This document shows positions 16,190-64,000 of a stretch of DNA of 64,000 nt, piece after piece. The notes under the pieces were generated by a model, which was not told where the DNA came from, did no database searches, and saw only the letters and a list, made by a program, of their open reading frames with translations. Position 1 is the stretch's first letter, and the number at the start of each line of letters is the position of its first letter. A program made the translations under genes and the position numbers. Origin of the DNA: Bdellovibrionales bacterium (GTDB lineage: Bacteria; Bdellovibrionota; Bdellovibrionia; Bdellovibrionales; JAMPXM01); assembly GCA_016713885.1 (NCBI GenBank), contig JADJOF010000007.1, forward strand, positions 175,206 through 239,205, written 5' to 3'.

Positions 16190-17577
16190 GCTTATCACCA
16201 AGCGGACTCCGGTAGCGTAAGAAAAAGTGTGTCCAAGCGGCTGCGTCAGGCTGACCAGCGAAAGGACATGAGCTATGAATTTCCAGATGGGAATCATCAA
16301 AGTTGAGATCAAGATTCCAGAGCTTGTTCAAGCGCTGGAGAGCTTCAAGGAGAATCGCGTCCACGCGCTTGAAGTATTGAGCCACGAAATCCGCAACGGT
16401 GTTGGTGACTTCGTGAACGCGCTTCTGCAAACCGAGATGGATTTATATCTTGGGCAAGCTGAACAATCCGCCAACAAAAGAAATGGCATCCGGGAACGAG
16501 AATACGCGATCAAGGGCGTGGGCCTTATTCGCATCAGAATGCCGACAGATCGGAAAAGATCGTTTCAGAGCGTGGTCGTGCCGCCTCACGAGCAAATCGA
16601 TCCACGGCTCAAAGAGGACATCGCAGTGCTTCATCTCGCGGGTCTTTCGAACCGGGTCATGGCTATGGTATCGAAGCGGATACTCGGAGTTGAGGTGTCG
16701 ACAGACACAGTCACGAAGTCACTCGACGTCATCGAAGATCGCGCGCTCGAGTGGCTTGAACGGCCTCTTGAGAAGAAGTACTGGGCTCTGTTCATCGATG
16801 GCACCAACTTCCGAATCCAGCGGAGAGGCTCGACTGAAAAGGAGCCATCGCTCGTCGTACTTGGCATCGATGCCGAGAGCCGTATGAGCATTTTAACGAT
16901 TCAACCCGGCCAAAAAGACAACGCCGAGTCTTGGCGCGAGGCCTTCAAGGATCTTATTAAGCGCGGACTTGATCCTGACGCGGTTCAGATCGGCGTGATG
17001 GATGGCCTTCCTGGTCTCGAAAACGCATTCAGAGAATCGTTCACAAAAGCAGTCACCGGAAGATGCTGGGTCCACTCGCTCAGGAATGCGATGGCGAAAG
17101 TTCCTGAGCGCCTCCGTGAGCCATTTAAAAAGCTCGCCCATCAAGTCATGTATGCCAACAGCGAAGCCTCGGCCAGAGCGGCGTTTGGAGCGCTAAAGGC
17201 AGAAATGAAAACTGACGCTGAGAGATCGGTTCGGGTTATCGAAAAAGATCTCGACTCACTTCTCGTTCACTACAAGTTCGAAAAGCGGTTCTGGCGAACT
17301 CTGCGAACGACGAACCCAATCGAGCGCGTGAACAAGGAGCTTAAGCGTCCAACAAAATCCATGGAGACACTGGGAGAAAGAACGCTCGAGGTGTTGGTTG
17401 CGTTCACCGCGATGAGGCTCGAGTACCACTGGATCAGGGTTCCGGTTGACTCTAGCCATCTTGAGAAGCTAGGAAGCTCGAAACGAAACAAGATTGAAGA
17501 AACTGTTCTGCAACTGATCCATTAATCAACCAGACACACAAAATCTAACGCTACCCGGACTCCCTTTGACCTTTATC
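16190..17577 (+). mobile_element. IS256-family insertion sequence (about 1.36-1.39 kb; ends approximate)
   Basis: Inverted repeats: GGACTCCGGTAGCGTAAGAAAAAGTGTGT at 16204-16232, versus the reverse complement of 17534-17563, GGAGTCCGGGTAGCGTTAGATTTTGTGTGT. The outer right end reads GATAAAGG.., like the IS256 termini. No target duplication was found. Confidence 0.7.
16275..17525 (+). CDS. IS256-family (Mutator-type) transposase
   Basis: 416 aa. LFIDGTNFRIQRRG, CWVHSLRNAMAKVP and LRTTNPIERVNKELKR are family-typical motifs. Confidence 0.9.
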   Translation: MNFQMGIIKVEIKIPELVQALESFKENRVHALEVLSHEIRNGVGDFVNALLQTEMDLYLGQAEQSANKRNGIREREYAIKGVGLIRIRMPTDRKRSFQSVVVPPHEQIDPRLKEDIAVLHLAGLSNRVMAMVSKRILGVEVSTDTVTKSLDVIEDRALEWLERPLEKKYWALFIDGTNFRIQRRGSTEKEPSLVVLGIDAESRMSILTIQPGQKDNAESWREAFKDLIKRGLDPDAVQIGVMDGLPGLENAFRESFTKAVTGRCWVHSLRNAMAKVPERLREPFKKLAHQVMYANSEASARAAFGALKAEMKTDAERSVRVIEKDLDSLLVHYKFEKRFWRTLRTTNPIERVNKELKRPTKSMETLGERTLEVLVAFTAMRLEYHWIRVPVDSSHLEKLGSSKRNKIEETVLQLIH

Positions 17578-23846: not shown

Positions 23847-23894
23847 TGGTCGGGGTGACAGGATTCGAACCTGCGACCTCTTGCTCCCGAAGCA
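23847..23894 (-). other. Orphan 3' half of tRNA-Pro(CGG): prophage attachment-site core
   Basis: The minus strand reads TGC-TTCGGGA-GCAAG-AGGTC-GCAGG-TTCGAAT-CCTGT-CACCCCG-A-CCA. The sequence 5' of it (ATCTATTTGATACTGCTGTCGATACC) cannot supply the CGGGGTG acceptor strand or a D arm. Confidence 0.75.
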
Positions 23895-23962: not shown

Positions 23963-25009
23963 TCACACAGCACCGCCTATCTGAACGATGTCGGCAACGC
24001 CGCGAGTGTCTTCCTCGGTGAAATGAAGATATGTTTTCTGTGCCTCATCGAGAGAAAGTCCGGCGTAGTGACAGATCAGTGCCGGGTTCGCCGACGTTTT
24101 GAACGCACGCGTCAAGAACGAGTGACGCAAATCATGGAACCGGCCCGACACGAATGCCTTGTTCCGACACGTCTCCCACGCGCTCTTGTTGCCGTCCGAT
24201 CGCTGCCGCTGAGTCGGATCCACCGGTGACGGGAAAAGCCAAACTTGACCATTTCCGGCGCGCTCCTTGAGCCGCTCATAAACGACCGCCGAGATGCCAA
24301 ACTTGCGGGCCTTTCTGATCTTCGTGTCTTCTGCGCGAAGCGTTATCGTCCGCTTTCGCATGTCGATCCGATCCCAACCGAGCCCCATGATCTCGCCCTT
24401 TCGCATGCCCATCGTGACAGCCATGAGGATTTGAAGACTGAGGTCAGCGTCCGCGTTCGCCAAAAGAGCTGCGATCTCTTCGTCGGTGAATACCTTCCCG
24501 GCCGCTCGCTCCGGATCCGGATTGATCAGCTCCGGAGTTTTCTTGATAACGCCGAGTCGTTTGAGCGACAGCAAGAACATGGCAAGCCACTTCCGATCGT
24601 TGAAAAACTTCCGATCCTGCGTGGTCTCGTGCCTTTTCTGTGGAATATAAACGGCCTCCCACCACTTCTCGTCGATCTCTTCAGGCAACATCCGACCAAT
24701 GTACGGCTCAAGATGCTTCCATGAGTTCTCGATGCTGTAGACCGTGGCTGGCGACTTGATGCGCTTTTGATCGATCCATTCAGGAAAGAGCTCAGCGCAA
24801 AGCTTCCGACCGCGCCGAATAGTACCCTCGCCCAGAAACTCAAGACGATATCGGTCGGCAATGATCTTTGCCTGACCAAGTACCGTGGTCTTGGTTGACC
24901 ACTCAATGCGTCCTTTCCCTTTACGAGAAATGCGCAAGTAAATGATTTGAGACTCAGGGTGCCGAAATAGATTCTCGCACCCCTTGCCTTTAATCGGATC
25001 AAGTTTCAT
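23963..25009 (-). CDS. int: Tyrosine site-specific integrase (unit 1)
   Basis: 348 aa. GMRKGEIMGLGWDRI (Arg), HDLRHSFLTRA (HxxR) and QKTYLHF (Tyr). Confidence 0.9.
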   Translation of the reverse strand: MKLDPIKGKGCENLFRHPESQIIYLRISRKGKGRIEWSTKTTVLGQAKIIADRYRLEFLGEGTIRRGRKLCAELFPEWIDQKRIKSPATVYSIENSWKHLEPYIGRMLPEEIDEKWWEAVYIPQKRHETTQDRKFFNDRKWLAMFLLSLKRLGVIKKTPELINPDPERAAGKVFTDEEIAALLANADADLSLQILMAVTMGMRKGEIMGLGWDRIDMRKRTITLRAEDTKIRKARKFGISAVVYERLKERAGNGQVWLFPSPVDPTQRQRSDGNKSAWETCRNKAFVSGRFHDLRHSFLTRAFKTSANPALICHYAGLSLDEAQKTYLHFTEEDTRGVADIVQIGGAV

Positions 25010-25194
25010 TTGTTCGGAAACTTCTTAACAAAAGCCCGGACATCCTCAGGGTCAAAGAGGATCTTCTTTCCAGGCTTGTATGTTTTGATCTGCCCTTCGG
25101 CGACCTTCTGGTAGACCGTCGACTTTGGCATCTGCAAAAGCGCAGAGACCTCTTCGATTGAGAGATACCGCTCAAGCTGCTTCTCACCCATCAC
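25006..25194 (-). CDS. xis: Excisionase / AlpA-type HTH DNA-binding protein
   Basis: 62 aa. YLSIEEVSALLQMPKSTVYQKVAEGQI..YKPGKKILF. Overlaps the int start by 4 nt. Confidence 0.75.
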   Translation of the reverse strand: MMGEKQLERYLSIEEVSALLQMPKSTVYQKVAEGQIKTYKPGKKILFDPEDVRAFVKKFPNK

Positions 25195-25376
25195 TTAACC
25201 TCGATGCAAACTGTTCGAATCTCTTTGACGGTTCCATCCATCAGCTTTTTCAATTCACGCGCTGATGACTCACACGATTCTTTCGATTTGAATCCACTGA
25301 CATTCGTCAAAGCGTTGCTGTTCCCGCTGCCCATCAATCCAACGTGCATCGCTATCACTAAAACAAAACCCATCAC
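25191..25376 (-). CDS. Small exported or membrane protein, unknown function (absent from unit 2)
   Basis: 61 aa. Hydrophobic N-terminus MMGFVLVIAMHVGLMG. Confidence 0.4.
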   Translation of the reverse strand: MMGFVLVIAMHVGLMGSGNSNALTNVSGFKSKESCESSARELKKLMDGTVKEIRTVCIEVK

Positions 25377-27709
25377 ACCAACTCCATGCTTAGCTGTCCT
25401 TCAAGTGGCTCATCAATGATCTCGTCGTCATCCTCAACGATAGCGACTGGCTTGTTTCGATTGTGAAAGTTGACGGCTGCATCTCTAGGATTGACCGTCA
25501 CCTTGAATGAGTCTCGGTCACTCGTCCCATTGATGACTGCGTCTTCAGCGTGCGCAATCATCCGATAAGCTAAATCGAAATAGCTCCGCTTAAGTTCTGC
25601 ACCGACAAATCGACGTCCCATTTGAACCGAAACGACGCCTTCTGATCCGATACCAGTAAACGGCGAGAACACGAGGTCATCTTTCGCCGACCACAGGTCA
25701 AGGCACCGATGAATCAGATCAAGTTGAAGTGGCGCAATGTGACGCTCATCCTCATCTTCTCGGGCGATGCGGCCGTTAAGCGTGTTCGATTGCTTAATGT
25801 CAAACCACACTGGGCTTGCATAATGTTGCCATCTATCCACAGGGAACTCCTCAGGAGTGTGCGCGATCGGCTTCGTATTCACGCCGGGCTTTCGGAATGT
25901 GACCACGTAGTCAGGCAGACCTTGGCGGCTCATTGATGAGTCTTTCTTGATCTGCTTCCAGAGAAGTCCAAGCGCCTTGGTTCGCTGCATCGCCACGACT
26001 GGGTCTTTCCAAATACAGACCTCAGAATGATAGATGAACCCACGCTTTTGAAACTCACGGATGACATCACCTCTGAAATCACGAATGCCGATCACGCCGT
26101 CACGCTGCTTTGACGTTGTCAGATTCATGCAATGAATCGATACATTTCGACCTGGACGCATGATGCGAGCCATCTCATCAACCAAGAATCCGAAATGGAC
26201 CCAGAACTCGTCGTAGTTCTTTGAGTTTCCCATGTCCCGATCACTGTTTGAGTAAGTGTAAAGCGATGAGAACGGCGGCGAGAATACCGAGTAGTCGATT
26301 GAATCGGAATCAATTGAACGAGCGACCTCAACGCAATCACCGTTGTAAATATCAAACAGCCTGCCTGATTCACGGCGAAGATTATATGTCGAGACCTCGC
26401 GAGTGAGCTGTCTGACTTCGCGCTCTTGAAACTCTCTCATGTGCTCAACGAGTGACGCCGCCATTTCTTCGGCCTGCGCCTCTTTCCGTTTGATGTTCTC
26501 AAGGACTGGACCCTCAGCAGCGTGAGCGATCATGGTCACAGTCACGGGCCTAGTCTGACCGAAACGGTAGCAGCGGCGAATCGCCTGATATATCTGCTCA
26601 AAGGAATCACTTAAACCTACGAATGCCATTTGATTGCAGTGCTGCCAATTCAAACCAAACCCTGCGATTTTTGGCTTGCTGATTAGAACGCGAAGCCTGC
26701 CTTCTGCGAAATCAATCAAGGCCTTCTCTTTCTTCTCAAGCTTGTCAGATCCTTTGATCTCGACCGATCCCGGAATCAGACTAGCAAGCTTCTCACTCTC
26801 ATCGTTTCTATGGCACCACACGACGAACGGACCTTCGGACTTGTTGACCAAGTCAGCGCAAGCCGAGACGCGCTCGTCTACCGTTTCGCGCTTTACTTGT
26901 TGACGGGCCTGAATGCCGTACACTTCCGGCGCAGTCTCAGTCATCTCACCAACGCTATGCATATTCATGATGAGCTCTGGCAAGTCGTAGCCTTCAGCCG
27001 AGAACCCGATATCAGATGGCTTTTTGATAAATACAGACCATGTCGCAAGCCACTCCCAGAACTTCGCTTTGCCGTGACCTTTAAGCCGCCACTTTGAAGT
27101 CTCGCCCGAGTCATGGATGAAAAACATCGAGAGCATTTCAACTTGGCTCATGACGCCAAGAAACTCAGCTTGTGAGCCGAGCTCCATGAAGTCATTGGGC
27201 GATGGCGTCGCAGTACAGCTAAGCCTGTACGGTATCTTTGAGCAGAGCTCAATCACCTGCGCCCTGGTCTTTGAATCCTGATGCTTAATGATCGACGACT
27301 CATCAAGACAGACGCCGTCGAAGTATCCGCGCTCAATGCCATCTCTAAAGTTCTCGAGCATCTCGTAGTTCGTGATGTAAATGCCGGTCTCTTCGTCAAA
27401 CTCGCGCGCGTACTTGATCGGAATGCCAAGCTTGTCAGCTTCGCGTATCGTCTGCTGCGCAACGCAAAGAGGCGCCACGATCAACACTCGATTGCCAGTG
27501 TACTGATGAACAGCCTCAGCCCATGCGCTTTGGATGAATGACTTGCCTAGTCCAGTGTCGGCGAATACCGCTGCGCGCCCACGCTTTAAAGCCCATTTTA
27601 CGATTGCGGCTTGAAACGGAAACAGCATCTCAGGCAGTGGCATATTGGCGTCAAAGCCAGACGGCGCATCGTAGCGCGCTTTTGAGTTTAAGAATGTCTG
27701 ATAGTCCAT
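25373..27709 (-). CDS. SNF2-family helicase fused to a beta-class N4/N6 DNA methyltransferase
   Basis: Helicase motifs ADTGLGKS, CLDESS and QAIRRCYRFGQ. Methyltransferase motif IV FSPPFSSLY lies upstream of motif I FSPFTGIGSEG. The start was moved to MDYQTF (GGGGGGA RBS). Confidence 0.85.
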   Translation of the reverse strand: MDYQTFLNSKARYDAPSGFDANMPLPEMLFPFQAAIVKWALKRGRAAVFADTGLGKSFIQSAWAEAVHQYTGNRVLIVAPLCVAQQTIREADKLGIPIKYAREFDEETGIYITNYEMLENFRDGIERGYFDGVCLDESSIIKHQDSKTRAQVIELCSKIPYRLSCTATPSPNDFMELGSQAEFLGVMSQVEMLSMFFIHDSGETSKWRLKGHGKAKFWEWLATWSVFIKKPSDIGFSAEGYDLPELIMNMHSVGEMTETAPEVYGIQARQQVKRETVDERVSACADLVNKSEGPFVVWCHRNDESEKLASLIPGSVEIKGSDKLEKKEKALIDFAEGRLRVLISKPKIAGFGLNWQHCNQMAFVGLSDSFEQIYQAIRRCYRFGQTRPVTVTMIAHAAEGPVLENIKRKEAQAEEMAASLVEHMREFQEREVRQLTREVSTYNLRRESGRLFDIYNGDCVEVARSIDSDSIDYSVFSPPFSSLYTYSNSDRDMGNSKNYDEFWVHFGFLVDEMARIMRPGRNVSIHCMNLTTSKQRDGVIGIRDFRGDVIREFQKRGFIYHSEVCIWKDPVVAMQRTKALGLLWKQIKKDSSMSRQGLPDYVVTFRKPGVNTKPIAHTPEEFPVDRWQHYASPVWFDIKQSNTLNGRIAREDEDERHIAPLQLDLIHRCLDLWSAKDDLVFSPFTGIGSEGVVSVQMGRRFVGAELKRSYFDLAYRMIAHAEDAVINGTSDRDSFKVTVNPRDAAVNFHNRNKPVAIVEDDDEIIDEPLEGQLSMELV

Positions 27710-27729
27710 AGTCGTCCCCCCGGAAACAC

Positions 27730-27942
27730 TCACGGCTTCACCTCTATCCCCTCTAAGACTTCTCGCATTTCGGCGAGCGCTTTGGTTGATATATCGAAGC
27801 AAACATTCCTGTCGACAGTTTCGCACTGGCAATCGATCGAGATTCGCTCCAACGCTTTTATTGCCAACAACATCGCTTTACTGTGTGCAATGGCTGTCAA
27901 TTTAACGCCGTCTAGCATCTTAAGAATTTCGGTGTCGGTCAT
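27730..27942 (-). CDS. Hypothetical phage protein
   Basis: 70 aa. Tightly packed in the early leftward operon. Confidence 0.45.
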   Translation of the reverse strand: MTDTEILKMLDGVKLTAIAHSKAMLLAIKALERISIDCQCETVDRNVCFDISTKALAEMREVLEGIEVKP

Positions 27943-28435: not shown

Positions 28436-28677
28436 TGCGCCCTCTGTTCTGGCTGAATTGCGCGATACGCACGAGAGAACTCTAAGCCGACCGCCTCTTG
28501 CAAGTTCACGCCACGCTCTTCTAAAGCAACGATTGCGTCGCCTGCGATCTTGCCTTCATGCGTGCGGTCTTCACCGTTCACATAGTGCGACACAAGCTCA
28601 ACGTCCTGAGAGAACCCAAAGACGTGCCGAGCTCCTTTGATTTCAAATTGTAGGTAGACGACTCGACGAAAAGTCAT
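28432..28677 (-). CDS. Hypothetical phage protein
   Basis: The ATG at 28677 overlaps the exonuclease stop (ATGA). Confidence 0.45.
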   Translation of the reverse strand: MTFRRVVYLQFEIKGARHVFGFSQDVELVSHYVNGEDRTHEGKIAGDAIVALEERGVNLQEAVGLEFSRAYRAIQPEQRAQ

Positions 28678-29366
28678 GCCCACTGATCTCCCCACTTAAA
28701 ATTAAGCTTTGCGAGCATCTCGTCCATATCTGAAACAAAGCGCGGAATGAGATCAGAAAACGCCTTCATTTTCTCTTCATCGCGGCGAACAGTCAGAACC
28801 TTGATCGGGTTCTTTTTCATGGCCGGATGGTATTGGACGAAGTCCCATGCGTCCGCGTCCATAACCCAAAGACAGAACTGATACTGCCAAACATACTCAG
28901 GCTTGATCTTGTCGTCGGTCGCAAAGCGGACGAAGTGCATTGGATTATACGGGCACTTGATTTCAACGCCGCGATAGCCTTCAAAGTCCTTGACCATGCC
29001 ATCAGGCGAACAGCCGATCCGAAACGAATCATCTTTGAAGACGAACGGCAGCTCCTCAACGATTGTGCCTTTCATGAACTCATACGATGAACGAGCCGCA
29101 TCCTCATGCTGATTGCCCCAATCAAGATACTTTGAATTGAGCTCTTCCATTTGGCCTGTGCAGACCTGAGACACAAGCTCAGCCATGTAGGTCGCCCGAG
29201 TCTCTGAATCAGCCTTGGCAACGACGCGAGCAGCATTGCTTGCCGAGATGACGCCAAGCTTTACGCGAAACCATTCAGCCGATGTTTGTTGAGCGAGGTT
29301 CGCGTTGAATCCGTAGCGCGTGGCGAATACGTCGTGAATCGCTGAAATCTGTTCTCTCGTTTTCAT
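28674..29366 (-). CDS. YqaJ/lambda-Exo-like recombination exonuclease
   Basis: 230 aa. AEWFRVKLGVISASNAARV near the N-terminus and GVEIKCPYNP (PD-(D/E)xK core). Lies directly downstream of RecT. Confidence 0.8.
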   Translation of the reverse strand: MKTREQISAIHDVFATRYGFNANLAQQTSAEWFRVKLGVISASNAARVVAKADSETRATYMAELVSQVCTGQMEELNSKYLDWGNQHEDAARSSYEFMKGTIVEELPFVFKDDSFRIGCSPDGMVKDFEGYRGVEIKCPYNPMHFVRFATDDKIKPEYVWQYQFCLWVMDADAWDFVQYHPAMKKNPIKVLTVRRDEEKMKAFSDLIPRFVSDMDEMLAKLNFKWGDQWA

Positions 29367-30292
29367 GTTTTCGCCTTCTGGTCTATAAACCCGTTAAGCA
29401 TAATGATTGATCTCTGAATCTCTTGATCTGTGAGCTCACCAAGTGATGCGATTTGACGGCTAAAGGTTCTGGCCGCGTGCTCGATGAACTTGTCTTCTGT
29501 TCGCCCGAGCTCTGAGAGCATTGAGCTAATCTGCGATAGCTTCTCATCACGGTCGGAACTAGGTGCCGCAATGGCCGGAGTATTGAAGTCGATCGGATCG
29601 GCTTCGTTTGAAACTGCAATCGCCTCATCAAATCTGCGATGGTCTGTCATCGGCCACGTTTTATAGGCCTTTCGGATCACCGTTTTCTTGATCATGTCAT
29701 GCTTGTCAGTTTGCCATGGCGTTGAGACGCCCTTTGCCTTGTGCGCTTTCCATGAATCGGAGCGATCGCGAATCGACTCGATCTCAATCATGTTCATCGT
29801 GGCAGTTAAGAACTCACCGTCAGTCGTCTTCGCAACGCAGTAGGCGCCGACCAAATCGCCGCGACTTTCGCTGAATGGATTGAACTCATGAATCGGCTTT
29901 ACGCCTGGGCCTCTTGATTCAAACTTATCGCCTGAGAACACAACGTCAGCGTGCGCCCACTTGATCGCACCGCAATCAGTCGCAAGCTTCAGGAGTCCGA
30001 TATACGACACCGCAAGGATGATCTTTTTGTCTCGTGGCAACAGATACGCAAGCTTGTGAACCGGGTTCAATGACAGGCCAATGGCCGCGACATTGATGAC
30101 TGCGCGTTTCAGAGAGTCAGGACTGCTTTGCGCAATGCCCGACAAGTATTGATTGTCCTTCAAGATGCCTATTGCAAACGATGCCTCACGCTCAAAGTTC
30201 ACAGCGCCATGGATCTGCGCAAGCTGTGCGAACTCAGCGCCGGCCGACTGTACGATTTGCCGCATGTTTTCGATTTGGGCTGGCAGACTCAT
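29363..30292 (-). CDS. recT: RecT-family single-strand annealing protein
   Basis: 309 aa. VINVAAIGLSLNPVHKLAYLLPR.. and VSYIGLLKLA. Paired with the YqaJ exonuclease. Confidence 0.8.
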   Translation of the reverse strand: MSLPAQIENMRQIVQSAGAEFAQLAQIHGAVNFEREASFAIGILKDNQYLSGIAQSSPDSLKRAVINVAAIGLSLNPVHKLAYLLPRDKKIILAVSYIGLLKLATDCGAIKWAHADVVFSGDKFESRGPGVKPIHEFNPFSESRGDLVGAYCVAKTTDGEFLTATMNMIEIESIRDRSDSWKAHKAKGVSTPWQTDKHDMIKKTVIRKAYKTWPMTDHRRFDEAIAVSNEADPIDFNTPAIAAPSSDRDEKLSQISSMLSELGRTEDKFIEHAARTFSRQIASLGELTDQEIQRSIIMLNGFIDQKAKT

Positions 30293-32102: not shown

Positions 32103-32612
32103 ATGAACAACCATGGAGGCTATGTGCAATTTGTCGTGATTCTGATCGCTCTCGTGATGGTTTTCGCAAATCAAGATGCAGAGGCTCAGAGCGCTGAAAC
32201 CCTCTGGAGAGCGCGATCCCTCGAGGCTAAGGACAATATCAAACGACTACTGGACTCCAAGAAAGTAGCAAAGAAAGTTGAGTGCGAGTTCCTTATCGAG
32301 CAGGCGTTTGAAGGCCTAAATGATCCAAAGTTCAAAGCGTTTTCAAAGACCGATAAGGGTGGGTTAACGGTACTGCTGACCATCGGCGACCCAAAGACAA
32401 AATCCTTACTCGGACTGGCCTTTCTATTCGGGGACGACAGCCGCAGGCCACTATTCATTCGTCCGATTTTCTTTGAAGACGCCAGCAAAACTGCTTGGAC
32501 ATTTGCAATTACGCCACTCACTTCGGGCGGCACTTTTGGTATAGAGACAAAGGACTGCGAATTTTTATTCTCCTCTGAGAACTATCTGAGTCCATCTGTG
32601 AAGGCCAAGTAG
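32103..32612 (+). CDS. Exported protein, unknown function (moron downstream of the repressor)
   Basis: 169 aa. Signal peptide VVILIALVMVFANQDAEA. Same strand as cI and opposite to all neighbouring phage genes. Confidence 0.45.
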   Translation: MNNHGGYVQFVVILIALVMVFANQDAEAQSAETLWRARSLEAKDNIKRLLDSKKVAKKVECEFLIEQAFEGLNDPKFKAFSKTDKGGLTVLLTIGDPKTKSLLGLAFLFGDDSRRPLFIRPIFFEDASKTAWTFAITPLTSGGTFGIETKDCEFLFSSENYLSPSVKAK

Positions 32613-32704
32613 TCCCGCACCGAGCCTTGATTCTGTCAGGCTTTGACAGATCATTTAAGAATCAGCCACAAGTCTGTTATTCTATGACAGCGGGCTAATC
32701 AAGG

Positions 32705-32983
32705 ATGAGAGGCTCGTTTTTCATGAAACTAAAAGGCGCATTTTTTCCAGAGATCCGAAAGGTCGCATCCGAAAAGCTTCAGATTGAGCTCGGCTGTAGT
32801 CCCGAAGTCGCAAAGATATTTCACCCGAGTATGCGGACCGATATCATCCCAGACGATTCAGCCGTTTGGATTCAAGCCTGCACGCTCCAGCAATGGGAAG
32901 AGTACGCAGGCGAATGGGAGCACGAGGCGGCCCATGGCTTTGAACTGGAAGTCGATCCGCCGCCAGCCTATTTGATGCACTGA
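32705..32983 (+). CDS. Small cytoplasmic protein, unknown function (moron)
   Basis: 92 aa (or 86 aa from the ATG at 32723). Same strand as cI. Confidence 0.4.
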   Translation: MRGSFFMKLKGAFFPEIRKVASEKLQIELGCSPEVAKIFHPSMRTDIIPDDSAVWIQACTLQQWEEYAGEWEHEAAHGFELEVDPPPAYLMH

Positions 32984-33117
32984 CGTTTCGCGATCATCTC
33001 GATTTCATCCTGAAGCCGCTTGATCTGCACAGCTTGGCTGAATGCCAAGTGCGCAAGTGGCAGCACCAGCGCCATGGCGAGAATCATCACAAGCACTGCG
33101 ACGCCAAGCCGGGTCAT
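32968..33117 (-). CDS. Unlisted 49-aa single-TM protein, last gene of the lysis cassette
   Basis: MTRLGVAVLVMILAMALVLPLAHLAFSQAVQIKRLQDEIEMIAKRQCIK. The ATG overlaps the upstream TGA (ATGA at 33114-33117). Confidence 0.4.
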   Translation of the reverse strand: MTRLGVAVLVMILAMALVLPLAHLAFSQAVQIKRLQDEIEMIAKRQCIK

Positions 33118-33395
33118 TCAGAGTCTCGCTGGTCAGCTTCATCCCTCTGGTCGGCGCGCATCTCTGCGAACCTGCCAGTGAGCTCTGCGCCGCCCGTACG
33201 ATTGAGCTCTTGCTCGAGAAGGATATTCTCGATCCGACGAATCTTCACGAACGCGCGCCTACGAGCCCCACGAAGTGCGATGATCACCCGAGAGAAGGCA
33301 GTCATCACCATTGCGGCCCCGCCACACAGCGCACCGACGACCTTCACGAAGTCATCGGCACCCATTCCAAACACGGCCGCGACTGTTTCGATCAC
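33114..33395 (-). CDS. i-spanin-like membrane protein
   Basis: The GTG at 33395 overlaps the endolysin TGA (GTGA). TM segment VVGALCGGAAMVMTAF is followed by a charged coiled region. Confidence 0.4.
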   Translation of the reverse strand: MIETVAAVFGMGADDFVKVVGALCGGAAMVMTAFSRVIIALRGARRRAFVKIRRIENILLEQELNRTGGAELTGRFAEMRADQRDEADQRDSE

Positions 33396-33820
33396 GCGTA
33401 CACCGGCATGAGAATGGCGACGACATCTTTCCGATGATTCCACGGTCTGATTCTGACAAACGCGTTCTGCTCAATCGCGTCCTTTTCAGTGAGCGTCTTC
33501 GAACCGCCGCCGCCAGCTTCAATGACGTGCTGATCATCGATCATGAATGCAATGTGAGTGATCTTGTCTGGCCTTAGGCCATAGAACACCAAGGCGCCAG
33601 GGCCTCTCATCTCACGCTCTGAAACGCTCAAGTAAAACTCAAACATTGCCTGCGCTGACTGATCACCTTTCGGGTCCATACCGACTGATGCAAGAATCTC
33701 TTGCACGAGGCCAGAGCAATCATAGCCACGCATCGGATCATCCCCGCCCCAAATGTATGGCCTACCGACAAAGTGCCACGCGTACTCGCAAGCAATCATC
33801 TTTTTGACCATCATCGCCAC
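33392..33820 (-). CDS. NlpC/P60-family cell-wall hydrolase (endolysin)
   Basis: 142 aa. YIWGGDDPMRGYDCSGLVQEIL (catalytic Cys) and HIAFMIDDQHVIEAGGG (His). Confidence 0.8.
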   Translation of the reverse strand: MAMMVKKMIACEYAWHFVGRPYIWGGDDPMRGYDCSGLVQEILASVGMDPKGDQSAQAMFEFYLSVSEREMRGPGALVFYGLRPDKITHIAFMIDDQHVIEAGGGGSKTLTEKDAIEQNAFVRIRPWNHRKDVVAILMPVYA

Positions 33821-59294: not shown

Positions 59295-59512
59295 CCCAAC
59301 ACCAGCGCAGCTTCACCGACTGTGTATCTCGATTTATTAAGCCAAGACTTCGCTTGATTGCAGAGTACCTTCACTGCGTAGTGACCGTTTCTGTCTGGCC
59401 CGTTTAGTATTTCAACCGGAACAGGTGCCGTTGCTATCGGATGCCCGTAGCATTTGGCTCTTGCTTTGACTGGCTTCCAGATTGCGCGTGTGCCTTTCTG
59501 AAATGTGCTCAT
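59291..59512 (-). CDS. Hypothetical phage protein
   Basis: 73 aa. Confidence 0.4.
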   Translation of the reverse strand: MSTFQKGTRAIWKPVKARAKCYGHPIATAPVPVEILNGPDRNGHYAVKVLCNQAKSWLNKSRYTVGEAALVLG

Positions 59513-59937
59513 TTCTCTTCTCCTGAAGGCGTTGGGATATCCCCAACGGTTGATTGATTTTCTTCAATTCGTGCGATCTCAATTTCGACTCTTGCCTCAC
59601 CGCCGAACGACTTCGACGCGTGCAGGATGTGGATAAGTTTGTCGTCTTCAATGACGCCTGACTTCTGGAGCGCGTCGCTTACACCTTCAACGAGGTTCGA
59701 TGTGTCGGCCTCGCCTTGCCGGTTGACGAAGAAGAACCGGTATCGGACTTCGAGCGGGTCTGCGATTGGCTCACGTCCGGCCCATTGCCGTTTCATGTGA
59801 AGCATTGCGATTCGTTCCCAAGCGATGAATTTGGGCGAATAGATCGCGTGCTTTCGTGAGCCCGAGCCTACAATGCGCTGCGTGTTTTTCTTTACGATGA
59901 CGCGGCCAGGGATTGAGCAGGTGAAGAGTGGGGTCAT
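59509..59937 (-). CDS. rusA: RusA-family Holliday-junction resolvase
   Basis: 142 aa. IPGRVIVKKNTQRIV and GEADTSNLVEGVSDALQKSGVIEDDKLI. Confidence 0.75.
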   Translation of the reverse strand: MTPLFTCSIPGRVIVKKNTQRIVGSGSRKHAIYSPKFIAWERIAMLHMKRQWAGREPIADPLEVRYRFFFVNRQGEADTSNLVEGVSDALQKSGVIEDDKLIHILHASKSFGGEARVEIEIARIEENQSTVGDIPTPSGEEK

Positions 59938-60833
59938 GCGCCCGCCTTTCCAAATCGAGTTTGGATTTCTTGCTTCAGCCGCGCAGCCTGTTCCGCAGAA
60001 AGTGGCGGCGGAGACTGGGCCTGGTCTGGTTGTGACGAGGATTGGGCGGGCGGCGCGTAAAGCTGAGCCCTAGGGGTGCAACGGTACTCCCCCTCCATGA
60101 CGGCAATATGCGTCCGTGGGCGAGTGAGGAAATCAAATGTCGCCAACCACTCCCGGTCGTTCTTGCCACGGCAAAACTCCGACCTCGCGATTCTGTCGAT
60201 GACATCGACCCACCTTGCTCGATCAGGCTCCTCGCAGATTCTTGCAGATGCAGCTTTCCAGCGTTCTTGTGTTTTTTTGAATCGGCCCATATCCACTAGC
60301 GGCATTGGCTTTCCCGCCACAGACTTCATCCCCGACATTCTCGCGTTCCAAAGTTGAGCGAGCTCGGGCGGCTCAAAAGTTTCTCCCGTACCCTCTTCAA
60401 AAGAATCTACTACACAACACTCCACTACACTTGGAGTGTCGGGTGACACTTCGGTAAGTGTCGGTGAAGTGTCGGGTGACACTCTAGGTACCTTTAAATT
60501 CGAGTCCATAAGACCAAGTCTCTGAAGTTTGTTGACGGCCGCCTGCTTAGCGCGGAAGCCATCCTTCGACTCGCCGTATTGAAACTCGAAGAACGTGACG
60601 AGGAAGAACTTGTCTGTATCAAATTTGATAACCTTCTCGCCAAACCACTCAGTCAGATTTGACTCTGTGACAGGAAATCCAAGATGAAAAGACATCTGAG
60701 GAAAGTCGCCGGGCCATATTCCGGCGTGATCGCACTGGTCGCAAAGATACAGAAACGCAAGCTTTGCCTTGAACGGTAGCTCACGGAACGACGGCCGCTT
60801 CCACTTGTCGGTGTCGGTGAATCGCTTAGGCAT
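59934..60833 (-). CDS. Replisome-organiser-like replication protein
   Basis: 299 aa. N-terminal FTDTDKWKRPSFRELPFKAKLAFLYLCDQCDHAGIW is typical of phage replisome-organiser N-domains. Confidence 0.45.
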   Translation of the reverse strand: MPKRFTDTDKWKRPSFRELPFKAKLAFLYLCDQCDHAGIWPGDFPQMSFHLGFPVTESNLTEWFGEKVIKFDTDKFFLVTFFEFQYGESKDGFRAKQAAVNKLQRLGLMDSNLKVPRVSPDTSPTLTEVSPDTPSVVECCVVDSFEEGTGETFEPPELAQLWNARMSGMKSVAGKPMPLVDMGRFKKTQERWKAASARICEEPDRARWVDVIDRIARSEFCRGKNDREWLATFDFLTRPRTHIAVMEGEYRCTPRAQLYAPPAQSSSQPDQAQSPPPLSAEQAARLKQEIQTRFGKAGA

Positions 60834-61623
60834 CGATCACCTCTGCCATCGAATCATTAAACTGCATGATGCCAGTCGAATTCATGACGTTTGCCGAAAT
60901 GAGATCGAGCGATAGGCCATGTTTTTCGTGGTACGTTAAAATGTCACGATGGAGTGACTGCCTATTGCAATGATACCAACGCTTTGATGCAAGACCGACG
61001 ATGCGATTTACCTGCGCAATCATCGGATTCTCGCGTTCCAGTTTCTGCCAATAGCAGATCCTTGGGATGTAGTAAAGGAATGCGTCAACAGACTGAGTCG
61101 AGGTGTCCTTCAGGTAGGTCATAACCGATTTGTCGATAGCCGAATAAATGTCTTCAACGGAGTAACGCCGGAGCATATTGCGTATGTCCGATAGATACGT
61201 GTCTGATATTTTGAATTCCGAACTTCTGAGGTTACGATTTATATAGTCAGCGATAGACTTGATAGCGTTCTCCTCGAGACCGACCATCGAGTTTCGCCAC
61301 TCTGCCATCATCGCGAGCTGTTCTTGCCTTAAGCTGATCGCCTTCATTTGATCGAGCTGCTTTTTGACGACGGTAGAGTCACTGAGAGTCCTGGCGCCCT
61401 TTCCTAGATTGCAGGAAACGCAGGAGGTGACGAGGTTTAGAACTTCGTTCTGGCCACCGGCCGCGACCGGATTGATATGATCGACGTGAAGGATTGCATC
61501 CGGCGCTGACATGCCACAATACTGGCAAGTAAAGGCATCACGTTTAAATACCTCAAAACGAAGCTTTTTCGAGATCGCCTTTCTGCTTACCTTCTTCTCA
61601 TTCTGAATCGGATCTTGTTCCAT
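60826..61623 (-). CDS. HNH endonuclease-domain protein with a C-terminal domain of unknown function
   Basis: 265 aa. FKRDAFTCQYCG..LHVDHINPVAAGGQNEVLNLVTSCVSCNLGKG. Confidence 0.7.
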   Translation of the reverse strand: MEQDPIQNEKKVSRKAISKKLRFEVFKRDAFTCQYCGMSAPDAILHVDHINPVAAGGQNEVLNLVTSCVSCNLGKGARTLSDSTVVKKQLDQMKAISLRQEQLAMMAEWRNSMVGLEENAIKSIADYINRNLRSSEFKISDTYLSDIRNMLRRYSVEDIYSAIDKSVMTYLKDTSTQSVDAFLYYIPRICYWQKLERENPMIAQVNRIVGLASKRWYHCNRQSLHRDILTYHEKHGLSLDLISANVMNSTGIMQFNDSMAEVIDA

Positions 61624-61890: not shown

Positions 61891-61936
61891 CCTTCTAAGC
61901 AGAGGGTCGCAGATTCGAGTTCTGCCGGGGCCACCA
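61891..61936 (+). other. Orphan 3' half of tRNA-Arg(UCU): attP-like core of unit 2
   Basis: CCTTCTAA-GCAGA-GGGTC-GCAGA-TTCGAGT-TCTGC-CGGGGCC-A-CCA. The T arm is perfect. The upstream 45 nt lack the GGCCCCG acceptor strand and a D arm. Confidence 0.65.
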
Positions 61937-61977: not shown

Positions 61978-61994
61978 TTCACCAGTTTTTCACC
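61978..61994 (+). promoter_or_regulatory. Arm-type repeat TTCACCAGTTTTTCACC (copy 2)
   Basis: Identical to 61741-61757. It overlaps the int2 stop codon. Confidence 0.45.
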
Positions 61995-63102
61995 CCACAC
62001 TTTCGCGTCCTGTTCCGAGGCGGAAGTGCGCCGCAACTGCGTTTAATTGCTTCTCGTCGAATCGGATGTAGTGCTTCATCGCGACCTTCATCGACATGCC
62101 TAGAGCTGAACAGACCACGACAGGGTTGAGCGCAGGATTTGAAAACGCCCGCGTCGCATAGCTCGCGCGGAAGTCATGGAATCGGCCGTCGATACCGAGC
62201 GCCTGCCTAAGCTTTGTCCACGGTTTCTTGAATCCGCCCTTGTCCATAGGGCGCTTTTCGTCCCACGCGTTCGGGAAAACATACGGGCTTTTCGGATAGT
62301 CGGCGCACTGTTTCTTCAGCGCCTCAATGACCTCGGAATGGATCGGAACCACACGACTCTGTCCGGTCTTCGTGTCTGTTTTCTTGAGCCTGATGCAGCC
62401 TGCGCCCCAGTCCATTCGGTCTTTGGCGAGCTGCGTAATTTCACTCGACCGCATGCCCATGTACTGGGCCATGATGATCCAAAGCCTGACGGCCTGTTCC
62501 GGGGCCTGGACGCCATCCTTGCCGTCGCGGAACTGCATCAACTGCTCGTCTGTGTACGACTTCCCGACGCCATCGTCCTCGTCGTACTCTGCATCAGGGT
62601 TGTAAATGTCAGGCGCACGAATGATATACCCGACAGCAAGGCACCAACTAAAGAACCCGGAAAGGTACTTCCAATGGTTCAAAAACTTGGTCGCGTCCCC
62701 TGACTTCGACTTCTCTTTGACGTGGGCCATGTACTCAACCCAAGCGTCACCCGTGATCTGATCAACGCGCATCGATCCAAAGAATGGTTTATACCATCGC
62801 TCTCCGAAGTGAATGTATTCCTTGATCGTGCGCTCACGGACCTTCGCAATGCCTCGAACCTTGCCCGTGGCCTTCGCTTCGATGAACTCTTCCCACGCGT
62901 CTTCAAAGATCTCTTTTTCACGACGCCAGTCCTCACCAAGAAGGATCGCCTTCTCGATGTCTTCAGCAAGCTTTTGCGCAACGGCAAAGTTCTTTGTGTT
63001 CAGCGCTTTCTGCACACGTTGGCCCTTGCAAGAAAACCTTGCATGGTACCACTCGCCGATGCGCTTGATGCGGCTGTCTCTGGTGTCCTGATAGTGATTC
63101 AT
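61990..63102 (-). CDS. int: Tyrosine site-specific integrase (unit 2; not similar to int of unit 1)
   Basis: 370 aa. GMRSSEITQLAKDRM, HDFRASYATRA and AMKHYIRF. Confidence 0.9.
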   Translation of the reverse strand: MNHYQDTRDSRIKRIGEWYHARFSCKGQRVQKALNTKNFAVAQKLAEDIEKAILLGEDWRREKEIFEDAWEEFIEAKATGKVRGIAKVRERTIKEYIHFGERWYKPFFGSMRVDQITGDAWVEYMAHVKEKSKSGDATKFLNHWKYLSGFFSWCLAVGYIIRAPDIYNPDAEYDEDDGVGKSYTDEQLMQFRDGKDGVQAPEQAVRLWIIMAQYMGMRSSEITQLAKDRMDWGAGCIRLKKTDTKTGQSRVVPIHSEVIEALKKQCADYPKSPYVFPNAWDEKRPMDKGGFKKPWTKLRQALGIDGRFHDFRASYATRAFSNPALNPVVVCSALGMSMKVAMKHYIRFDEKQLNAVAAHFRLGTGRESVG

Positions 63103-63311
63103 GACGCGTTCTTACGCTTGATCCATTTCCTAATTTCGTCCGGATCAAATCGACGATGCCGCCCGATCTTGATTGACGGTATCTGATTCGTCGCAACGTA
63201 GAGCTTCAATGTCGATATTGGAATCGACGTGAACTCGCGAACGTCTTCGATCAACCAAAGTCGCTCCATCTTTTGCTGTGAAATCTTTGATGATTTTCTC
63301 TCTTCCATCAC
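63099..63311 (-). CDS. xis: Excisionase / HTH_17-type DNA-binding protein (unit 2)
   Basis: 70 aa. WLIEDVREFTSIPISTLKLYVATNQIPSIKIGRHRRFDPDEI. Confidence 0.75.
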   Translation of the reverse strand: MMEERKSSKISQQKMERLWLIEDVREFTSIPISTLKLYVATNQIPSIKIGRHRRFDPDEIRKWIKRKNAS

Positions 63312-64000
63312 ACCAACTCCATGCTTAGCTGTCCTTCAAGTGGCTCATCAATAATCTCGTCACCATCCTCAACGATAGCGACTGGCTTGTTTCGATTGTG
63401 AAAGTTGACGGCTGCATCTCTAGGATTGACCGTCACCTTGAACGAGTCTCGGTCATTCGTGCCGTTCATGACTGCGTCTTCAGCGTGCGCAATCATTCTA
63501 TGAGCAAGATCAAAGTAGCTCCGCTTAAGTTCTGCACCGACAAATCGACGTCCCATTTGAACCGAAACGACGCCTTCTGATCCGATACCAGTAAACGGCG
63601 AGAACACGAGGTCATCTTTCGCCGACCACAGGTCAAGGCACCGATGAATCAGATCAAGTTGAAGTGGTGCGATGTGACGCTCGTCCTCATCTTCGCGAGC
63701 AATGCGGCCGTTGAGAGTATTTGACTGCTTGATGTCAAACCACACTGGGCTTGCATAGTGCTGCCATCTATCCACAGGGAACTCCTCAGGAGTGTGCGCG
63801 ATCGGCTTCGTATTCACGCCGGGCTTTCGGAATGTGACCACGTAGTCAGGCAGACCTTGGCGGCTCATAGATGAGTCTTTCTTGATCTGCTTCCATAGAA
63901 GTCCAAGCGCCTTTGTCCGTTGCATCGCAACGACTGGATCTTTCCAAATACACACCTCAGAGTGATAGATGAATCCACGCTTTTGAAACTCACGGATGAC
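63305..64000. repeat. Long direct repeat, partner at 25370-26065 (offset 37,935 bp)
   Basis: Colinear by eye, with about one mismatch per 15-20 nt. Homology starts abruptly at CATCACACCAACTCC and runs to the window end. Confidence 0.85.
63308..64000 (-). CDS. DNA methyltransferase C-terminal part of a second helicase-methylase gene (5' end outside window)
   Basis: 214 residues align to the C-terminus of 25373-27709 with only 4 substitutions (Y/H, I/M, S/N, D/G). Confidence 0.85.
   Translation of the reverse strand, partial: VIREFQKRGFIYHSEVCIWKDPVVAMQRTKALGLLWKQIKKDSSMSRQGLPDYVVTFRKPGVNTKPIAHTPEEFPVDRWQHYASPVWFDIKQSNTLNGRIAREDEDERHIAPLQLDLIHRCLDLWSAKDDLVFSPFTGIGSEGVVSVQMGRRFVGAELKRSYFDLAHRMIAHAEDAVMNGTNDRDSFKVTVNPRDAAVNFHNRNKPVAIVEDGDEIIDEPLEGQLSMELV

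Follow-up and report, generated by a model that had tools for sequence, protein, structure and literature searches.

ATPases of the SWI2/SNF2 family are widely coupled to methylases in phages and plasmids, either in one polypeptide or as the products of neighbouring genes (PMC5512222), and the anti-restriction role of one such protein, DarB of phage P1, is documented (PMC5512222). The only characterised mechanism for a fusion of this kind that we could cite is that of Dnmt5 from the fungus Cryptococcus neoformans, in which methylation depends on the SNF2 domain hydrolysing ATP and does not depend on nucleosomes for this (10.1101/2020.01.05.895227). Beta-class methylases, for their part, work as dimers (PMC7544214, PMC10406627). 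Here we analyse a fusion of an SNF2-type motor to a beta-class amino-methyltransferase, encoded in a 64,000-nucleotide stretch (the window) of a Bdellovibrionales metagenome-assembled genome (MAG; GenBank assembly GCA_016713885.1, contig JADJOF010000007.1, positions 175,206 to 239,205). The gene lies in the first of two tandem prophages (units 1 and 2), and part of a second copy is found in unit 2. A model that read only the DNA (the original prediction) had proposed a self-protecting or replication-coupled modifier, and this remains the best reading of the sequence. The fusion is a member of a known, abundant and already annotated phage family (PHROG 16). On balance we lean towards an orphan phage methyltransferase, tethered to its own SNF2 duplex translocase, that most likely modifies phage DNA in lytic growth.

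The SNF2 motor-methylase fusion is real and intact. The minus-strand open reading frame (ORF) spans 25373..27832 and would encode 819 residues from a TTG codon; an ATG at 27709, with a GGGGGGA ribosome-binding sequence 6 nucleotides upstream, gives 778 residues and agrees with the N-termini of homologues (MDYQ/MEYS/MNYK). An identical protein is on deposit as MBK7892807.1, named 'helicase'. The original prediction had described one 778-residue polypeptide with SNF2 motifs, and we located all the motifs it quoted and checked their nucleotide positions: ADTGLGKS at residue 50, LDESS at 135, QAIRRCYRFGQ at 375, SPPF at 477 and FTGIG at 684. Two further SNF2-type motifs are present, III (TATPSPN) and V (AGFGLNWQ). 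Methylase motif IV (SPPF) precedes motif I (FTGIG), which is the beta-class order, just as had been proposed.

Profile searches and a structure prediction, both suggested as checks at the outset, agree with this description. Each of the three Pfam domains scores above its curated cut-off: SNF2-rel_dom at residues 57-186 (E 1.8e-08, 34.3 bits against a cut-off of 24.9), Helicase_C at 282-384 (E 3.8e-07, 30.8 bits against 23.5) and N6_N4_Mtase (PF01555) at 472-715 (E 2.7e-15, 57.3 bits against 26.7). PHROG 16 ('DNA helicase') spans residues 24-722 as a single stretch (E 1.5e-73). An AlphaFold2 model built with 49 homologues as input (mean predicted local distance difference test score, pLDDT, 78.5; predicted TM score, pTM, 0.66) shows two RecA lobes, connected by a long linker helix to a methyltransferase fold, and after it a disordered acidic tail, where pLDDT falls below 50 (residues 732-778) and mean identity to relatives is 0.23. 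In Foldseek searches of the PDB the best matches of the N-terminal half are Mot1, CSB/Rad26, Chd1, RapA, ISWI, Ino80 and SsoRad54, with E values down to 4e-17, and the C-terminal half matches TTHA0409 (2zie). Among the 49 homologues, motor residues K56, D136, E137, R379 and R382 and methylase residues S477, P478, P479, F480, F684 and G686 are invariant, and the motor motifs ADTGLGKS, DESS, TATPSPN, AGFGLNWQ and QAIRRCYRFGQ are invariant or nearly so. By Pfam, motif and fold the motor half belongs to the SNF2 (SWI2/SNF2) family of ATPases; by Pfam and motif order the C-terminal half is a beta-class amino (N4C/N6A) DNA methyltransferase. Pfam, PHROG, NCBIfam and PADLOC reveal no nuclease domain in the protein, and the model contains no extra folded domain.

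The two copies in the window allow selection on the gene to be assessed. Positions 25370-26065 and 63305-64000 form the sole internal repeat of the window, 94.4% identical over 696 nucleotides. Over the 230 shared codons the copies differ at 39 nucleotides and four amino acids, giving a ratio of nonsynonymous to synonymous substitution rates (dN/dS) of 0.036. Three of the amino-acid differences (I727M, S731N and D762G) fall in the tail and one (Y716H) at the end of the methyltransferase segment. The original prediction had given the four changes correctly in substance, over 214 rather than 230 residues, and had argued from them that the protein is functional; a dN/dS this low indicates strong purifying selection, the catalytic motifs are intact, and judged on this pattern the gene is clearly functional. 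The full-length second copy (MBK7892864.1), on the same 259.5-kb contig, is identical at 773 of 778 positions.

The fusion had been taken for something unusual, and this did not hold: it is among the commoner phage early proteins. A tblastn search of 50,697 phage records gave 398 with a match, 303 of them over 80% or more of the query; best represented are Mycobacterium (147), Flavobacterium (85), Arthrobacter (27), Pseudomonas (23) and Streptococcus (23), and Synechococcus phage S-CBS3 is among the best full-length matches. Several of the records carry the annotation 'DNA helicase/methylase', and some match in the helicase half only, for example sampled Streptococcus, Staphylococcus and Liberibacter records. 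A metagenome protein search gave at least 8000 matches; the best 120 of these are all 730-820 residues long, with 89-100% of the query matched and both methylase and helicase domains. Copies also occur in representative genomes of, among others, Methanobacteriota, Actinomycetes, cyanobacteria, Janthinobacterium, Thauera, Ruminococcus, Saccharibacteria and Parachlamydia. Mycobacterium phage Yorick has the halves as two neighbouring genes 6 nucleotides apart (gp65 helicase and gp66 methyltransferase) with the same motifs, and an insert in a Janthinobacterium prophage leaves a 462-residue helicase gene and a 309-residue methylase gene. Since the halves are fused in most lineages and split in few, they appear to act as a two-part functional unit. 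The insert, in a Janthinobacterium lividum MAG (L004, 7140-8078), is an ORF with a GIY-YIG-like motif (YIYALIDPETDLIRYIG) that sits exactly at the linker, with a ParB-like gene just upstream.

In beta-class enzymes the target-recognition region sits in the segment between motifs VIII and X and is normally variable. In the fusion the corresponding segment, residues 566-655, has the highest mean identity to the query of the whole protein (0.80), whereas the methylase cores reach 0.65-0.67 and the two RecA lobes with their intervening insert 0.61-0.70; the linker is among the least conserved segments (0.52), and it is here that the gene is split or interrupted in other phages. The ranking is repeated in most of the distant genomic relatives. 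Because this segment is the best conserved part across phages of very different hosts (archaeal, Firmicutes, Actinobacteria, cyanobacterial and Proteobacteria phages), tailoring of specificity host by host is disfavoured, and the target is likely to be the same across phages, either one short site or a target of little sequence specificity. Such conservation would be in keeping with a writer that its motor carries along replicating phage DNA, methylating it throughout. Taken furthest, it would make the family an ATP-driven processive methylase with a universal or nearly sequence-independent target, possibly N4 of cytosine, working with phage single-strand-annealing recombination; we put this forward tentatively, and consider it doubtful as a whole. 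The conservation pattern is not shared by the divergent phi297/Mycobacterium F-type branch. Its member phi297 gp10 (Pseudomonas phage, L020, 4992-7622; 31% identity) has SIPF and FGGIM as methylase motifs and QSIHRLHRFLQ as motor motif VI, and its methyltransferase activity may be changed or absent.

A highly conserved equivalent of the recognition region would also suit one fixed target, as expected of a regulatory (epigenetic) methylase that times events such as packaging, origin firing or the lysis-lysogeny switch by methylating a small number of phage sites, which the motor would help it to find. Phage orphan methylases can indeed regulate, as the Dam sites annotated in the cre regulatory region of P1 illustrate. 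However, the wide range of phages just listed has unrelated circuits, so that a shared regulatory site is unlikely, and no candidate site was identified; we regard this explanation as quite improbable.

As to the target base, the original prediction had noted that SPPF/SPPY is more typical of N4-cytosine enzymes. An N4-cytosine enzyme carries SPPY where the adenine enzyme CcrM carries DPPY (PMC10406627), and SPP[FY] is present in every relative examined, down to ~43% identity. N4 of cytosine is thus the better guess, as a tendency and not a rule.

The setting of the gene suggests when the protein is made. It stands in the early operon, with genes for the annealing protein RecT and a YqaJ-type exonuclease upstream and xis and int downstream (coordinates of all these features are collected in the table below). 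In unit 1 a 61-residue ORF is translationally coupled on both sides, its start overlapping the fusion stop codon (TGATG), and the minus strand holds no terminator-like site between fusion and int. The single strand and the overlapping stop and start codons suggest that the fusion is made after infection or induction and not in the quiescent lysogen. The original prediction had xis and int directly next to the fusion in both units, which is exact for unit 2, whereas in unit 1 the 61-residue ORF intervenes. As a property of the family, this placement fails: among the 113 ORFs within ~6 kb of the fusion in 12 other genomic loci (L001-L013) there is a single integrase match, and integrase adjacency is otherwise seen in the window, L014/L015 and, loosely, L016.

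Recombination genes are the steadier company. A RecT or ERF gene adjoins the fusion in L003, L010, L014, L017, L018 and phi297; RecT, ERF or AAA-ATPase recombination genes likewise stand beside it in the window and in Yorick. The census of neighbours further includes SSB, ERF, Gp157, AAA_24, DnaB_C, DUF927, primase Zn-ribbon and PAPS-reductase-like genes. The commonest neighbours are YopX-family genes, with 6 of the 113 ORFs. C5 cytosine methylases turn up three times and, like the PAPS-reductase-like genes, count among the DNA-modification genes, several of which some carriers therefore stack. This company raises the possibility that the fusion is above all an accessory motor for recombination or replication, a Rad54-like partner of RecT/ERF/Sak4 that remodels or branch-migrates duplex DNA, with the methylase as a passenger mark or DNA-binding module. 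Two further observations fit: Firmicutes phages have stand-alone homologues of the N-terminal half whose annotation is that of a helicase in the replication module (phrog_62), and the phi297 branch keeps most motor motifs while its methylase motifs are degenerate. However, in the branch to which the window belongs conservation of the methylase half equals or exceeds that of the motor, with no change at the methylase's catalytic residues, and a partnership with RecT is hypothetical. We take a primary role of this kind as the main rival explanation but think it rather unlikely; nor does it exclude methylation.

The replication genes bear on another suggestion, that the fusion replaces DnaB as the replicative helicase. 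The original prediction had noted that the phage lacks DnaB, primase or loader genes. The first two indeed went unfound in PHROG and Pfam scans of unit 1; the claim about the loader fell, as the replication module encodes an initiator with an O-like/DnaD-like helicase-loader domain, which can recruit host DnaB. Moreover, SNF2 ATPases track on duplex DNA without unwinding it (PMC5512222), and the structural neighbours of the motor are all such translocases. On the metagenomic contig L014, whose fusion is 92% identical, the order is RecT, YqaJ, two small ORFs, fusion, xis, int, two ORFs, a DnaB_C helicase and RusA, so this phage has a DnaB-type helicase of its own at the equivalent place, and genes for DnaB, DUF927 or primase are found in further carriers. 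The L014 order also suggests that in the free phage the early operon runs through attP into the replication module. With an initiator/loader present, a replication module that is a swappable cassette and a motor family that does not unwind, it cannot be argued that the phage depends on the fusion for a helicase; the fusion is probably not the replicative helicase, a role that we find extremely improbable.

The fusion is an orphan methylase: neither the protein nor the nearby ORFs scanned contain a restriction nuclease, and no nuclease gene lies beside it in either unit. This matters for the proposal of a defence or exclusion module carried by the prophage, for example one akin to Type III or Type ISP restriction-modification (R-M) systems or to DISARM but lacking a nuclease, which would mark self DNA for a partner nuclease directed at other phages. 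The combination of a helicase-like motor and a beta-class methylase is the Type III make-up (PMC7544214; EcoP15I Mod is beta-class), there are weak partial matches to the DrmD and DpdE models, and unit 1 has two HNH genes elsewhere. But the DrmD and DpdE matches cover only ~70-90 residues of generic helicase motif (E ~1e-6), and PADLOC otherwise returned generic methyltransferase models. The gene also occupies a lytic early operon rather than the position of cargo expressed in the lysogen, and the 303 phage genomes that carry it do so in replication modules. A defence function is, in our judgement, very improbable.

We accordingly return to modification of phage DNA and set out how it could work. 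The N-terminal motor would bind duplex DNA and track along it using ATP without unwinding, as other members of its family do. The C-terminal domain would methylate an exocyclic amino group with S-adenosylmethionine (SAM), SPPF/SPPY suggesting N4 of cytosine, and, given the dimeric nature of beta-class enzymes, the methylase is probably the part through which the fusion dimerises. Carried by the motor, the methylase would quickly scan and modify phage DNA during replication or recombination; the motor might also strip off bound proteins or reshape the DNA for base flipping. Progeny genomes would then leave the cell already modified and be protected from restriction in the next host.

Several points weigh against this proposal. 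The gene lies outside the virion module, in the early recombination operon and well away from the head genes; this argues against packaging of the protein in the virion without proving it, and the protein is not expected to shield incoming DNA at first entry as DarB does. The steady tie to annealing-protein modules fits a primary recombination role equally well. Weak NCBIfam matches, to the SAM-binding end only, go to adenine enzymes, and SPPF is no strict rule for N4-cytosine activity. The phi297 branch lacks SPPF/FxGxG, so that methylation may not be the conserved function everywhere. At a pTM of 0.66 the geometry between domains is not validated. Full-text literature searches found no experimental study of this fusion architecture and no characterised member, and activity, target base, specificity and ATP dependence are all inferred.

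Table. Features of the two fusion copies and their surroundings (window coordinates)
Feature	Coordinates	Strand	Basis or remark
Tyrosine integrase, unit 1	23963-25009	-	phrog_1, 1.4e-30
Excisionase, unit 1	25006-25194	-	phrog_66, phrog_2907
61-residue ORF between fusion and xis, unit 1 only; hydrophobic N-terminus	25191-25376	-	ORF list, no PHROG match
Fusion gene, complete, stop codon included	25373-27709	-	ORF list; Pfam, PHROG 16; 778 residues
Acidic C-terminal tail, residues 727-778	25376-25531	-	predicted disordered, poorly conserved
Beta-class amino-methyltransferase, residues 446-726	25532-26374	-	Pfam, 2zie match, invariant residues
Methylase motif I (FTGIG)	25646-25660	-	motif coordinates
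Methylase motif IV (SPPF)	26270-26281	-	motif coordinates
Linker between motor and methylase, residues 401-445, mainly one long helix (402-433)	26375-26509	-	AlphaFold2 secondary structure
SNF2-type ATPase motor, residues 31-400	26510-27619	-	motifs, invariant residues, AlphaFold2 model, Foldseek
Motor motif VI	26555-26587	-	motif coordinates
Motor motif V	26642-26668	-	motif coordinates
Motor motif TATP	27203-27214	-	motif coordinates
Motor motif DESS	27293-27304	-	motif coordinates
Motor motif Walker A	27539-27562	-	motif coordinates
YqaJ-type exonuclease, upstream of fusion	28674-29366	-	phrog_149, 5.3e-43
RecT annealing protein, upstream of fusion	29363-30292	-	phrog_148, 9.1e-52
RusA, unit 1	59509-59937		phrog_140
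Replication initiator, O-like/DnaD-like helicase-loader domain, unit 1	59934-60833	-	phrog_10469 1.6e-10, phrog_19658, phrog_345
HNH-like gene, unit 1	60826-61623		
Tyrosine integrase, unit 2	61990-63102	-	phrog_1, 9e-43; no nucleotide similarity to unit 1 integrase (self-BLAST)
Excisionase-like helix-turn-helix protein, unit 2	63099-63311	-	phrog_66, phrog_597; start overlaps fusion stop (TGATG)
Second fusion copy, last 230 codons and stop, cut by window end	63308-64000	-	94.4% nucleotide identity to 25370-26065

From high to low coordinates unit 1 runs through the HNH-like gene, the initiator, RusA, a terminase-associated HNH gene, terS, a probable terL, portal, scaffold and major head protein genes, P22-like connector, ejection and tail genes, a plus-strand block (32103-33437), small ORFs, RecT, the YqaJ exonuclease, four small ORFs, the fusion, the 61-residue ORF, xis, int and a tRNA 3' fragment; apart from the plus-strand block the unit is on the minus strand. 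The block, between the tail genes and the early operon, holds three ORFs of 169, 92 and 131 residues. These, like the small ORFs upstream of the fusion, have no Pfam or PHROG match; the three ORFs of the block could be a repressor or lysogeny cargo. The repressor/immunity region of unit 1 was not identified in the PHROG and Pfam scans.

The region from 23900 to 64000 and beyond consists of two related P22-like temperate phages in tandem in the Bdellovibrionales MAG; to our knowledge, few temperate tailed phages of Bdellovibrio-like predators have been described. RecT is also present in two copies, and the accession numbers differ by 57 in the RecT pair as in the fusion pair, which fits two similarly arranged prophage copies. 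Nucleotide similarity between the units ends 3 nucleotides beyond the fusion stop codon (25370 / 63305). The xis/int modules beyond are unrelated at the DNA level, with proteins only ~27% identical to each other's relatives, and the break is sharp, a classic mosaic joint where one gene ends. Fragments of the 3' ends of two different tRNAs, rather than intact genes, lie at 23847-23893 (minus strand) and ~61895-61935 (plus strand). Each sits just downstream of one integrase gene but points the opposite way; ARAGORN and Rfam scans gave no RNA gene, and the att regions contain tRNA 3' fragments only. The first fragment looks like attL of the array, and the second may be an intact attP of phage 2, in which case the tandem would stem from homologous recombination and not from the second integrase. 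The host flank carries an IS256-family transposase gene (16275-17525, plus strand), whose identical protein occurs on many short metagenomic contigs.

The gene call alone adds little, as the architecture is catalogued (PHROG 16) and SNF2-methylase coupling in phages has been noted in reviews. Its value is as a pointer to a very abundant phage early protein whose activity is so far predicted, and for which cultured carriers are on hand: Mycobacterium smegmatis phages of the Cheoctovirus group, Flavobacterium columnare phages, Arthrobacter phages and Synechococcus phage S-CBS3. If the motor is needed for methylation, the family would be a prokaryotic example of ATP-coupled DNA methylation, a counterpart of the Dnmt5 type, and could serve as a non-specific or processive writer of N4-methylcytosine or N6-methyladenine (m4C/m6A) for chromatin footprinting. 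If it proves to be an ATP-driven processive methylase with a universal or nearly sequence-independent target, it would be a broad-spectrum anti-restriction device. The window itself documents tandem P22-like prophages in a Bdellovibrio-like predator.

The nearest described relatives are the phage proteins of PHROG 16, represented by the 'DNA methylase' of Synechococcus phage S-CBS3, the Flavobacterium columnare phages FCV/FCOV, Arthrobacter phage Gorpy gp73 and the Mycobacterium Cheoctovirus-group phages (Yorick gp65 and gp66). They share the order of SNF2 motor, linker and PF01555 domain in ~730-800 residues, the SPP[FY] motif IV, the motor motifs and a place in early replication/recombination modules, and they align along more than 90% of the length with 43-53% identity. 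The window fusion differs from these examples in its Bdellovibrionales MAG host, in standing at the end of a lambda-like early-left operon before xis-int, and in being present in two tandem prophages with unrelated integrases. For the C-terminal half taken separately, the best match by sequence and by structure is TTHA0409 (M.TthA0409) of Thermus thermophilus HB8 (PDB 2zie; E 2e-17, TM 0.77). It has the beta-class order and SPPY as motif IV, aligns end to end including the middle segment, and crystallises as a beta-class dimer (PMC7544214, PMC10406627). Unlike the fusion, it is a stand-alone chromosomal protein of 297 residues without a motor, and its depositors call it a putative methylase.

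DarB resembles the fusion in carrying a methylase and SNF2-related helicase motifs in one polypeptide, and the original prediction had drawn this parallel. It is an analogy only: the best BLASTP high-scoring segment pair reaches 22.7 bits (E 0.25), and we rejected a relationship with DarB given the different methylase family and reverse domain order. In the 2255-residue DarB an N-terminal N6_Mtase/Eco57I methylase (PF02384/PF07669, gamma-type adenine; residues 145-290) comes before the helicase (SNF2 849-911, Helicase_C 1455-1517), whereas in the fusion PF01555 follows it. DarB also travels inside the virion, and the DNA on which it acts in cis is that being injected. As precedents for the mechanism, Type III R-M and Dnmt5 come nearest. 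The Type III R-M systems (EcoP15I/EcoPI Mod and Res) likewise pair a beta-class dimer with a DNA-moving superfamily 2 (SF2) ATPase (PMC7544214), but Res is a separate, nuclease-bearing subunit whose ATPase is not of the SNF2 family. Assignment of the fusion to Type III or Type ISP R-M was rejected, as the motor polypeptide has no PD-(D/E)xK or Mrr-like nuclease domain. So was assignment to DISARM, given a weak partial DrmD match only (1e-6, ~70 residues) and RecT, YqaJ, xis, int and small ORFs as neighbours in place of DrmA/DrmB (the DUF1998 helicase pair) and DrmC. Fungal Dnmt5, finally, also joins a DNA methyltransferase and an SNF2 ATPase in one polypeptide. It is a eukaryotic maintenance enzyme for hemimethylated CpG, with a C5-cytosine methylase that has no homology to that of the fusion and the opposite domain order.

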